This document shows, piece by piece, positions 44,484-51,756 of a stretch of 64,000 nucleotides of DNA (its first letter is position 1; each line of letters begins with the position of its first letter). Position numbers and translations under genes: made by a program. The stretch covers positions 256,001 through 320,000 of the forward strand of contig CAVSZB010000005.1 of assembly GCA_963732385.1 (NCBI GenBank), read 5' to 3'. The notes below the pieces were generated by a model. That model searched no databases. It was not told where the DNA came from and saw nothing but the letters and a program-made list of their open reading frames with translations. This stretch comes from an uncultured bacterium (lineage in GTDB: Bacteria; Krumholzibacteriota; Krumholzibacteriia; LZORAL124-64-63).

Positions 44484-45365
44484 GTGCCTGCCTGTTTTTT
44501 CGTTTCCGACCTCCACGGGAGGCGCTCCCGTTACGAATCGCTCTTCGCCGCGATCGCGGCGGAGCGGCCGACGGCCGTGTTCCTCGGCGGTGATCTGCTG
44601 CCGCACGCGTTGGTGGCACCGCACGCGCCCGGCGGAGCTCCTCCGGATTTCAGCGACGACTATCTGGCTGTGCGATTCCTGCGCCTGCGCGACAGGCTCG
44701 GCGCGGACGCCCCGCGCGTTTTCGTAATCCTGGGCAACGACGACGCGCGCGCCGAGGAAACCACCATGCTCGCCGCGGCCGCACGCGGCGCCTGGGAGTA
44801 CGTGCATGAGCGCGCGGTGGAATTCGGCCAATGGCGCGTGTGCGGCTACGCCTGTGTCCCCCCCACCCCGTTCCGCCTCAAGGATTGGGAACGCTACGAC
44901 GTGTCGCGCTTCACCGATCCCGGCTGCCTGCCACCCGAGGACGGGATACGCACGGTACCGGTGCCGGAACACGAGATCATCCACGGCACGATCGCGGACG
45001 ACCTGGCGCGTTGCACGGGCGACGTCGACATGGAGCGCGCGATCATCCTTTTCCACACCCCGCCGTACGATACGCGGCTCGACCGTGCCGCGCTCGACGG
45101 CAAAATGATCGACCACGTCCCGCTCGATCCGCACATCGGCAGCATCGCCGTGCGACGCTTCGTCGAGGCGCGCCAGCCGCTGCTGACCCTGCACGGCCAC
45201 GTGCACGAGTCGACGCGCCTCACCGGGGAGTGGCGCCAGCAACTCGACCGTACCTGGATGTTCCAGGGGGCGCACGACGGACCGGAACTGGCGCTCGTGC
45301 GTTTCGATCCGGAACGTATCGGGGACGCGACGCGGGAATTGCTGAGGCCGCCGGCGGATGGCTGA
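44484..45365 (+). CDS. Calcineurin-like metallophosphoesterase (Icc-related)
   Basis: SDLHG, GGDL, GNDD, HTPP, HGHVHE. Confidence 0.88.
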   Translation: MPACFFVSDLHGRRSRYESLFAAIAAERPTAVFLGGDLLPHALVAPHAPGGAPPDFSDDYLAVRFLRLRDRLGADAPRVFVILGNDDARAEETTMLAAAARGAWEYVHERAVEFGQWRVCGYACVPPTPFRLKDWERYDVSRFTDPGCLPPEDGIRTVPVPEHEIIHGTIADDLARCTGDVDMERAIILFHTPPYDTRLDRAALDGKMIDHVPLDPHIGSIAVRRFVEARQPLLTLHGHVHESTRLTGEWRQQLDRTWMFQGAHDGPELALVRFDPERIGDATRELLRPPADG

Positions 45366-45381
45366 GCGGACGGCCATCCGT
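45354..45381. terminator. Hairpin between the convergent phosphoesterase and PPDK_N-NTase genes
   Basis: GCGGATGGCTG-agcgga-CGGCCATCCGT, 11-bp stem including G-U pairs. Confidence 0.45.
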
Positions 45382-50418: not shown

Positions 50419-50469
50419 GAAGTGGGGACGCCGGGCCGCGCCGGAGCGCCGACGCCCGGCATCCAGCGC

Positions 50470-51756
50470 TCAGACCCAGCCGCGGTCCCGGCAGGCCTGC
50501 GCCACGCGGCCGATCGCAATCACGTAGGCCGCGTCGCGCATGTAGATCCTGCGCTTCTTGGCCAGCTCGCGCACCGCCAGGAAGGCCGAGGTCATCTTGA
50601 GGTCCAGCTTGCCCAGGACCTCGTCCTTCTCCCAGAAGTAGTTCATGTTGCTCTGGACCTGCTCGAAGTAGCTGCAGGTCACGCCGCCGGCGTTGGCCAG
50701 GAAATCGGGAATCAGGAAGATGCCACGCTCCTCGATCACCTTGTCAGCGTCGAGCGTGGTCGGCCCGTTGGCGCCCTCGCCGATGATCTTCACGCGCTTG
50801 GCGATCTTGTGCACATTCTCGCCGGTGATCTGGTTCTCGAGCGCACTCGGCAGCAGGATGTCCACGTCCTGTTCCAGCCAGGCGTCGCCCGGCAGGATCT
50901 CGTAGCCCAGCCCCCTGGCTTTCACCTTGTCGATGCCGCCGAAGCGGTCGGTGATCGACAGCAGTTCGTCGAGGCTGATTCCCGAGGCCCTGCGCACCGC
51001 GTATGAGATCTGGTCGCTCTGGTCCCAGTAGGAGCAGCAGACGACCTTGCCGCCCAGCTGCGTGTAGAGCTGGATGGCATACTGCGCGACGTTGCCGAAA
51101 CCCTGCACCGAGGCGGTGGTGTCGGACGGACGGATGCCCAGCTCCCTGAGCGCCTCGCGCACGGTGAAGATCAGGCCGTAGCCGGTCGCTTCGGTGCGAC
51201 CGAGCGAGCCGCCCATGCCGACCGGCTTGCCGGTGATGAAGCCGGGCAGCTTCGCCCCGTGGATCGCCTCGAACTCGTCGAGCATCCAGAGCATGTGCTG
51301 CGGGCTGGTCATGACGTCGGGGGCCGGCACGTCGCTGAGCGGGCCGATGTTCTTCGCCAGCTGGCGGACCCAGCCGCGGCAGACCAGCTCCTGCTCCCGC
51401 ATGCTCAGGTTGTGCGGGTCGCAGATGACGCCGCCCTTTCCGCCACCGAGCGGGATGTCCACGACCGCGCACTTCCAGGTCATCCACATGGCCAGCGCGC
51501 GCACCGTATCGACGGTCTCCTGCGGGTGGAAACGGATACCGCCCTTGCAGGGCCCGCGCGCGTCGCTGTGCTGCACGCGGAAGCCACGGAACACCTTCAC
51601 GCCGCCGTCGTCCATGCGCACCGGAATGCTGAAGGCGTACTCGCGCATCGGGCTGCGCAGCAGTTCGCGCGTGGCCGCGTCCAGCTCGAGGAATTCGGCG
51701 ACCTTGTCGAACTGCGCCTGCGCGGTGACAAATGGATTGTACGCACTCTTGGCCAT
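50470..51756 (-). CDS. gdhA: Glutamate dehydrogenase (Glu/Leu/Phe/Val DH family)
   Basis: RGPCKGGIRFHP, MTWK, GGGKGG, DVPAPD, TGKP...GGSLGRTEATG, VQGFGNV, EGANGP, PDFLANAGGV. Confidence 0.92.
   Translation of the reverse strand: MAKSAYNPFVTAQAQFDKVAEFLELDAATRELLRSPMREYAFSIPVRMDDGGVKVFRGFRVQHSDARGPCKGGIRFHPQETVDTVRALAMWMTWKCAVVDIPLGGGKGGVICDPHNLSMREQELVCRGWVRQLAKNIGPLSDVPAPDVMTSPQHMLWMLDEFEAIHGAKLPGFITGKPVGMGGSLGRTEATGYGLIFTVREALRELGIRPSDTTASVQGFGNVAQYAIQLYTQLGGKVVCCSYWDQSDQISYAVRRASGISLDELLSITDRFGGIDKVKARGLGYEILPGDAWLEQDVDILLPSALENQITGENVHKIAKRVKIIGEGANGPTTLDADKVIEERGIFLIPDFLANAGGVTCSYFEQVQSNMNYFWEKDEVLGKLDLKMTSAFLAVRELAKKRRIYMRDAAYVIAIGRVAQACRDRGWV

Follow-up and report, generated by a model that had tools for sequence, protein, structure and literature searches.

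The glutamate dehydrogenase locus

The window analysed in this study is a stretch of 64,000 nucleotides (nt) from an uncultured bacterium of the phylum Krumholzibacteriota (GenBank assembly GCA_963732385.1, contig CAVSZB010000005.1, positions 256,001 to 320,000 of the forward strand). The genes in question are gdh, encoding a glutamate dehydrogenase (GDH, this copy being referred to as GDH1), two genes encoding proteins related to phosphoenolpyruvate (PEP) synthase and pyruvate phosphate dikinase (PPDK), from now on referred to as A and B, and a metallophosphoesterase gene (Table 1). The four genes were found where a preliminary description of the sequence had placed them, position 44484 being the start of the phosphoesterase gene and 51756 one of two candidate starts of gdh (ATG at 51765, giving 431 amino acids (aa), or ATG at 51756, giving 428 aa). 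The strands, which had been left unstated, are minus for gdh, followed by A and B, and plus for the phosphoesterase gene, which as described converges on the 3' end of B with 15 nt between the two stop codons. A and B are indeed paralogous PPDK_N proteins (28% identity over 530 residues) whose genes are joined by an ATGA overlap. The absence of a pyruvate-binding barrel was likewise confirmed, neither protein matching the barrel family PEP-utilizers_C (PF02896), and so were the two additions to B, a sensor-like N-terminal domain with a predicted GAF fold in the structural model and a C-terminal nucleotidyltransferase (NTP_transf_2, 36.5 bits in Pfam, together with Polbeta and MTPAP-like matches). 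A GGAGG sequence is located 9 nt ahead of the ATG of A at 50320. The G+C content of the region is ~63-73% and shadow open reading frames (ORFs) are many.

Table 1. Coordinates of the genes and predicted domains (positions in the window, or in the locus L075 where so marked).
Feature	Position	Strand	Remark
gdh (GDH1)	50470-51765	minus	hexameric-type glutamate dehydrogenase, 431 aa
Protein A	48566-50320	minus	584 aa, PPDK-type ATP-grasp and swivel-like domain
A ATP-grasp	49088-50221	minus	PPDK_N, fold match
A swivel-like domain	48569-49087	minus	candidate phospho-carrier His H520, codon 48761-48763
A stop/B start overlap	48566-48569	minus	ATGA, seen directly in the DNA letters
Protein B	45381-48569	minus	1062 aa
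B GAF fold	48132-48542	minus	structure match of model residues 10-146
B helical region	47535-48131	minus	residues 147-345
B ATP-grasp	46395-47534	minus	PPDK_N
B swivel-like domain	45810-46394	minus	His H837, codon 46059-46061
B minimal nucleotidyltransferase	45384-45761	minus	residues 937-1059
Metallophosphoesterase	44484-45365	plus	293 aa, converges on B
dinB, DNA polymerase IV (IMS family)	51884-53119	minus	directly upstream of gdh, same strand
KamA-type aminomutase and Ddl-type ligase genes	38794-44220		directly below the phosphoesterase gene
Protein C	L075 7762-10770	minus	1002 aa, receiver domain, PPDK_N and A-type His module
GDH2, E. coli-like class	L075 6234-7796	minus	directly downstream of C, ~33% identical to GDH1

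Linkage of A and B to glutamate dehydrogenase genes

Of 7999 candidates scored in a search with B, 7832 proteins reached an E value of 0.001 or lower, and scanning one genome per species revealed relatives encoded in at least 624 stretches. Among the matches listed, those from other phyla share ~60% identity along the entire protein, and B is, judging from these sequences, a member of a large, slowly evolving family. According to the record titles the carriers include Zixibacteria, Ignavibacteriota, Calditrichota, Planctomycetota, Acidobacteriota/Aminicenantes, Eisenbacteria, Krumholzibacteriota, Fermentibacteria, Cloacimonadota, Delongbacteria, Bacteroidota and others, spanning more than 10 phylum-level groups, and many of them are uncultured sediment or anaerobic lineages.

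For the neighbourhood survey 68 B loci were kept, and the counts use those loci that have enough flank. The surveyed loci are best-scoring matches, related genomes included, and the fractions describe the family and not independent events. A GDH at least 55% identical to the GDH1 of the window (mostly 70-80%) was found in 49 of 51 B loci, in 47 of these 49 directly upstream and on the same strand. The gene for A is located directly upstream of B in 50 of 58 loci, separated from it by no more than 36 nt in 46 of these (estimated from tblastn ends), and the complete four-gene set is present in 31 of 46 loci. Six loci lack A and have B immediately after gdh, and in a single locus, L029, neither gdh nor A was found. 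A fusion of the two proteins also exists (P0016, 1647 aa), in which the A part, 52% identical, stands ahead of B, and 8 of 120 among the matches listed are of fusion length (1629-1648 aa). De novo ORF clustering, which is noisy from shadow ORFs, showed no further widely conserved neighbour in the 68 loci. One locus (L072, 18312-20180) harbours, at a distance of 6 kb from the module and in opposite orientation, an extra B-like paralog, which is 46% identical over residues 294-916 of B and stops short of the GAF and nucleotidyltransferase ends.

The reverse survey, starting from the best 30 GDH1-type genes of the phylum (the one in the window included), found a dikinase-like neighbour for 29. 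This neighbour is A, downstream, in 27 cases, three of which also have a third paralog, C, upstream; in one case it is B downstream and in one case C upstream, while the remaining GDH1-type gene is situated at a contig end. The linkage to gdh, which the preliminary description had put forward for survey and whose lack it had named as a ground for refutation, is thereby found in many phyla, from both survey directions, for three paralogs and for two GDH classes. The linkage to a phosphoesterase gene that the description proposed also recurs, in 34 of 54 loci (convergent in 31), but the gene is absent from the other 20. A tree of the GDH sequences (L007-L135) ignores the phylum labels, grouping Zixibacteria with Planctomycetota and bins labelled as Alphaproteobacteria with Calditrichota, as would be expected if the cassette had spread laterally or if bins had been mislabelled. 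By the position of its GDH in this tree the genome of the window is probably a member of the Krumholzibacteriota.

The ATP-grasp and swivel-like core of A and B

In Pfam both proteins match PPDK_N (PF01326), A with 119 bits and B with 196 bits. The structural model of A, with a predicted local distance difference test score (pLDDT) of 87.9 and a predicted template modelling score (pTM) of 0.88, resembles rifampin phosphotransferase 5hv1 (Z 25.4, root mean square deviation (rmsd) 2.8, 284 residues aligned), PEP synthase 2ols (VIA-align, Z 25.1, 360 aligned, model residues 15-584 on chain residues 4-465), HpeI 9goj (Z 18.6) and PPDK 1dik (VIA-align, Z 17.8, 348 aligned, model residues 13-584 on chain residues 7-505). 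The central domain of PPDK that carries His455 is taken here to end near residue 505 and, if this boundary is correct, the match to 1dik up to residue 505 implies that the C-terminal 170 residues of A correspond in space to the phosphohistidine swivel domain. By sequence, a PDB search with A gave a single weak match (5hv6, E 0.004) and one with B gave none, and Pfam up to E 10 returned no family for the C-terminal 172 residues of A.

Within the swivel-like domain A contains the motif G-S-H-F-F (H520) and B the motif G-T-H-F-F, the histidine of which, H837, aligns with H520. The histidine is situated at a helix start after a strand, which we take to be the arrangement found in PPDK, and is invariant across 43 A sequences and 13 B sequences respectively. 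Conserved residues of the ATP-grasp, presumably matching K22, R92, E323, Q335 and R337 of PPDK, are also invariant in both sets, and in B the invariant residues are K350, R449, E696, Q708, H837, G969, S970, D981, D983 and D1026. Since the ATP-grasp residues are invariant in A as well as in B, both ATP-grasps are probably active. The preliminary description, which compared A and B with stand-alone ATP-grasp dikinase modules, had missed the swivel-like domain; as a divergent domain of this kind is predicted after the PPDK-type ATP-grasp in both, the proteins are not bare ATP-grasp modules.

No separate acceptor-binding domain was recognised in B, and A is fully occupied by the ATP-grasp and the swivel-like domain. 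The alternative that they act as a PEP synthase with a separate subunit, named in the preliminary description as one that would overturn its proposal, received no support; in the genome of the bacterium itself (95.8% complete) the barrel domain is confined to a true PPDK and one ORF of 645 aa, which we take to be PtsI-like.

Sensor domains and a second pair of dikinase and glutamate dehydrogenase

In the model of B the N- and C-terminal domains are locally well modelled and only these two were used. Residues 10-146 resemble dozens of GAF domains, such as 3cit_B (Z 11.2, rmsd 2.2, 123 aligned) and the GAF structure of PtsP, 3trc (Z 10.1). No family was found for residues 1-345 in Pfam up to E 10, and in the ESM Atlas residues 1-340 scored 0.87 with unnamed clusters and 0.80 with GAF clusters, which is under the trust level; the putative GAF assignment is based on the structure comparison of the model and not on the ESM Atlas.

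When analysing the rest of the genome a second pair of a GDH gene and a dikinase-like gene was identified (L075, contig 7, 896000-912000, pair region 6234-15143), consisting of C and a GDH of another class, GDH2. Ahead of the pair are genes whose saccharopine-dehydrogenase, AlaDh_PNT and aldehyde-dehydrogenase domains suggest a role in lysine breakdown. Matches to C at E 1e-30 or better are present in 179 of 208 genomes of the phylum, a threshold that also catches A-type paralogs, and in 28 of the best 30 loci a GDH gene follows C (GDH2 class in 9, GDH1 class in 19); of the two loci without one, the first has only 96 nt of flank and the second is a true miss. In other phyla (L044 and L051) the genes for GDH2, C and a phosphoesterase share a strand and face gdh1-A-B, whereas in L026 the phosphoesterase gene comes after that for GDH2 and in L064 GDH2 and C are found on the far side, divergent from gdh1. 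A fusion of C and GDH, suggested by open frames of 1450-1650 aa around C in some genomes, was not found in L078, the sole locus checked, which has the two genes in different frames. Such sensor domains, a GAF in B and a receiver in C, are typical of regulators.

Proposed role of A and B

The reading we favour, though with slightly less than even confidence, is that A and B are barrel-less relatives of PEP synthase and PPDK that are predicted to autophosphorylate on histidine and that are likely to exert post-translational control on GDH or through it. In the proposed mechanism ATP would load H520 of A and H837 of B in the manner of a dikinase, as in the mycobacterial protein VadK (compared below), and A and B would act jointly, with a heteromer as the probable form. 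Loading of the histidine may be gated by a metabolite bound to the GAF domain of B, in analogy to the control that glutamine exerts through the GAF domain of enzyme I-Ntr, and the receiver domain of C could gate it likewise. The loaded proteins would then bind GDH and either change its activity or read its ligand state, and a second mark, placed on GDH or on A and B themselves, might be written by the nucleotidyltransferase of B and erased by the phosphoesterase. The GDH-linked modification system of the preliminary description is thereby supported in part, its linkage having proved conserved and its sensor/writer/eraser mechanism acting on GDH being hypothetical.

Several observations weigh against this reading. 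Pfam did not detect PEP-utilizers (PF00391) in A or B, and aligning A with the PPDK of its own genome (hhalign) gave a probability of 1.8 and no useful match. The histidines of A and B are assigned from the range of the fold alignment together with the sequence motif and not by residue-level superposition, and the model of B as a whole is poor (pLDDT 61.1, pTM 0.36). Neither the phosphoesterase, which 20 of 54 loci lack, nor A, which 7 of 58 lack, is obligatory. The samples contain related genomes that do not count as independent, and many are metagenome bins whose labels are uncertain. Gene linkage as such is, moreover, no less compatible with a partnership of enzymes than with regulation.

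GDH connects carbon metabolism with nitrogen metabolism. In bacteria its control is mostly ascribed to gene expression and to small effectors, and to our knowledge no dedicated covalent or partner-protein switch like that of GlnE and PII for glutamine synthetase has been described for it; a search of the full-text literature, which leaves subscription journals largely outside its coverage, found no published link between GDH and dikinase-like proteins of this type. If A and B do control GDH they would represent a new layer of nitrogen and amino-acid regulation and, after VadK, a second and much more widespread dikinase turned regulator. In either case large and very conserved proteins travel with GDH genes in hundreds of species.

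GDH1 and copies without the catalytic lysine

GDH1 contains both ELFV domains (ELFV_dehydrog 239 bits, ELFV_dehydrog_N 180 bits in Pfam), scores 463 bits against the NCBIfam model GdhA_Arch, under its cut-off of 750, and aligns with the Thermococcus GDH 1euz with 412 bits, the binding and catalytic motifs included. The motifs GPxKGG, WK, GGGKGG, PAPDV and GGVxxSY are all in place and the copy in the window retains the catalytic lysine, K107 in the 428-aa numbering (codon 51436-51438). With the residue roles assigned according to what we take to be the Clostridium symbiosum GDH numbering, the ELFV domains, the catalytic lysine and the substrate-binding Lys/Lys/Ser are all found, and by its sequence GDH1 is a canonical GDH of the hexameric type. 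Compared with 1euz it has short insertions at about residues 236-275 (window 51000-51100), presumably after the second strand of the coenzyme-binding domain. These insertions contain the motif W-D-x-x-D/E...S-Y, and WDxxD/E was found in 88 of the 97 relatives collected.

Alignment of the GDH1 sequences from the modules revealed that the catalytic lysine of GGGKGG is kept in 86 of 97 rows, the window's included, and replaced in 9 (N in L022 and L048, S in L026 and L028, A in L059, G in L071, Y in L073, Q in L083 and T in L129), the motif being unrecognisable in two more. The losses occupy four or more separate positions in the tree. In contrast K71, K95 and S362 show no substitution, and 46 of 47 rows have D147. 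A GDH gene is present in 54 B loci, ten of which have two; in seven of these ten the copy at the head of the module is dead or highly divergent and the other copy retains the lysine, whereas among the 44 loci with a single GDH gene one lacks the lysine and one is too short to score. Of the seven B loci with a lost lysine (L022-L073) all except L048 have an intact second GDH, and for L083 and L129 no second GDH gene was found within the 1.5-kb flanks fetched. The locus L043 has at the module head (6986-8245) a very divergent GDH1-like copy, 48% identical and with a branch length of 3.4, and a normal GDH1-type gene behind the phosphoesterase on the other strand.

The module GDHs that have lost the lysine indicate a partnership with A and B that is independent of GDH1 turnover, and from these sequences GDH need not be a target only, a role as partner or sensor without catalysis being open to it as well. 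An explanation built on this is that GDH1 is the input of the system, a sensor of glutamate, 2-oxoglutarate or NAD(P)H that reports to A and B. The phosphohistidine, the nucleotidyltransferase and the phosphoesterase would then act on a different target, such as the second GDH or a protein encoded elsewhere. The repeated loss of the lysine beside invariant binding residues, concentrated in loci with two GDH genes, speaks for such a sensor, and in the dead copies a core enzyme may have been turned into a sensor subunit. Against it stand the large majority of rows that keep the lysine, the pairing of C with intact genes of the GDH2 type (10 of 10 rows keep the lysine) and the lack of any conserved further target gene in the neighbourhood, and we regard this explanation as unlikely, if worth keeping in view.

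The nucleotidyltransferase of B and the phosphoesterase

Residues 937-1059 of B resemble minimal nucleotidyltransferases (MNT), with 1wot (Z 8.0), 8xeh_E (Z 7.8), which is the MNT chain of a HEPN-MNT complex, and 1no5_B (Z 7.6) as matches, and the GS...DxD motif as well as the third Asp are invariant in the 13 B sequences. No GlnE or GlnD family model matched B in Pfam or NCBIfam. The model of the adenylyltransferase antitoxin MntA (NF047752) gave 23 bits against a cut-off of 60, and B was on this ground ruled out as an MntA equivalog. No HEPN family matched B and no conserved extra neighbour was found in the 68 loci, a result that a divergent HEPN may escape.

The phosphoesterase matches Metallophos (PF00149) with 31.7 bits, above the cut-off of 21.5. 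Among 25 sequences the metal-ligand residues D37, N85, H191, H239 and H241 are invariant and D9 and H11 nearly so, and the protein is on this evidence assigned to the calcineurin-like metallophosphoesterases. Its best profile match in the PDB, and the only protein that the PDB searches gave, is aq_1956 (2yvt, E 5e-4), and it has no close solved relative.

The preliminary description had interpreted the module as a GlnE-like switch. In the version considered here the nucleotidyltransferase of B would put a nucleoside monophosphate on GDH, in the way GlnE modifies glutamine synthetase, and the phosphoesterase would erase it, the dikinase parts serving only to tune the reaction. The invariant nucleotidyltransferase motif, the fold matches, the weak similarity to MntA and the convergence of a phosphodiesterase-type eraser on B in 31 of 54 loci speak for it. 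The domain is however of the minimal MNT type with no match to GlnE or GlnD, A and C pair with GDH without any nucleotidyltransferase, a phosphoesterase is missing from 20 of the 54 loci, and the strict conservation of the ATP-grasp and the histidine in both proteins argues that phosphotransfer is central. We judge the GlnE-like interpretation rather improbable, somewhat more so than a sensor GDH1.

An enzymatic partnership or none

PEP synthase and PPDK phosphorylate an alpha-keto acid, and 2-oxoglutarate is an alpha-keto acid too. Another possibility is that the complex is an enzymatic machine in which GDH provides the acceptor site in place of the missing barrel and the swivel histidine of A and B phosphorylates GDH-bound 2-oxoglutarate or glutamate, coupling the reaction to ATP cleavage. 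It would explain why the linkage spans two GDH classes, which presumably share mainly their substrates, and why the ligand-binding residues are invariant, and it remains in consideration because A has no acceptor domain of its own. It leaves the sensor domains, the nucleotidyltransferase and the phosphoesterase without a clear role, the recurrent loss of the catalytic lysine fits poorly with chemistry at that site, and A and B are each a full unit of ATP-grasp and histidine, as opposed to the split HpeHI (PMC12167813). Regulation is favoured over chemistry at the active site of GDH on account of the dead GDH copies and the sensor domains, and the probability we give to an enzymatic machine is low. 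A specific form of it, that GDH and the barrel-less dikinases constitute one ATP-driven enzyme passing the histidine phosphate to the 2-oxo acid in the active site of GDH, is in our estimate very unlikely; if true, it would be a counterpart of PEP synthesis for 2-oxoglutarate, with amination pulled by the cleavage of ATP to AMP, and would amount to a third high-affinity route of ammonium assimilation beside the glutamine synthetase-glutamate synthase (GS-GOGAT) route and plain GDH.

That A and B have no functional tie to GDH, being ordinary PEP synthase-like proteins with a separate subunit or hitch-hikers on a transferred island, would agree with a GDH tree independent of the phylum labels and lateral spread of a cassette, but is hardly credible in view of the lack of an orphan barrel domain in the own genome, the lack of a conserved barrel gene near B in the 68 loci and the recurrence of the linkage for three paralogs and two GDH classes, in gene orders that vary.

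Flanking genes and transcription signals

The gene directly upstream of gdh is dinB, and genes of the KamA-type aminomutase and of Ddl-type ligases are located below the phosphoesterase gene. A search for DinB and KamA gave zero matches across all 68 related loci, and the dinB and KamA genes are not linked to the module. A scan for consensus matches revealed no terminator-like site on the minus strand within 44000-52500 and one promoter-like site, a consensus match only, 119 nt ahead of the phosphoesterase start. Contigs from RNA libraries (X19 and X20, from strains 88-99% alike) overlap parts of all four genes, but contigs of this kind cannot show transcription or an operon. Among the sequencing runs at most 0.19 of the sampled words were found in any run.

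Comparison with known systems

A and B share with PEP synthase and PPDK an ATP-grasp with conserved ATP-site residues, and the domain predicted after it is swivel-like, with the histidine at a helix start. They differ in that the PEP/pyruvate-binding TIM barrel is absent, and the genome has a separate true PPDK; as the barrel is absent, A and B are not PEP synthases or PPDKs.

GlnE and GlnD are switches of nitrogen assimilation that use Pol-beta-type nucleotidyltransferases. The module is similar to them in that a Pol-beta-type nucleotidyltransferase motif is encoded beside a central enzyme of nitrogen metabolism, whereas the domain in B is of the minimal MNT type, about 120 aa long, without a match to either family. 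It shares the MNT fold and the GS...DxD motif with the MntA-type proteins of HEPN-MNT systems.

Rifampin phosphotransferase (5hv1) and HpeHI (9goj) are among the best structural matches of A and use a dikinase mechanism with a swivel histidine (PMC12167813). Both carry a domain for binding a small molecule, which A is without, and HpeHI splits the ATP-grasp and the swivel between two proteins (PMC12167813), while A and B each contain both. With no acceptor domain recognised and no division of the parts between subunits, A and B do not belong to the HpeHI or rifampin phosphotransferase type.

For enzyme I-Ntr (PtsP) of the nitrogen phosphotransferase system (PTS) it has been reported that glutamine binding to the GAF domain blocks autophosphorylation of the histidine (PMC4848567). 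B resembles it in having an N-terminal GAF domain ahead of a predicted histidine phosphotransfer unit, which would be of the same swivel-domain superfamily. Enzyme I-Ntr takes the phosphate of PEP by way of its barrel and hands it to NPr, where B instead carries an ATP-grasp.

VadK (Rv1127c) of Mycobacterium tuberculosis is a barrel-less relative of PPDK that autophosphorylates His422 with ATP and Mg and that pulls down two enzymes of the methylcitrate cycle, methylcitrate synthase and dehydratase (PMC13400623). When compared by architecture it is like A and B in having an ATP-binding domain and a phosphohistidine domain with the barrel absent, and it has enzymes of metabolism as partners in place of a small molecule as substrate. 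It differs in that these partners are methylcitrate enzymes and not GDH, and A and B for their part occur as paralog pairs, have the GAF, receiver and nucleotidyltransferase additions and a linked phosphoesterase and contain a swivel-like domain too divergent for PEP-utilizers. The phosphohistidine-type domain predicted in A and B makes a VadK-like histidine autokinase appear the closer model for the module than a GlnE-like switch.

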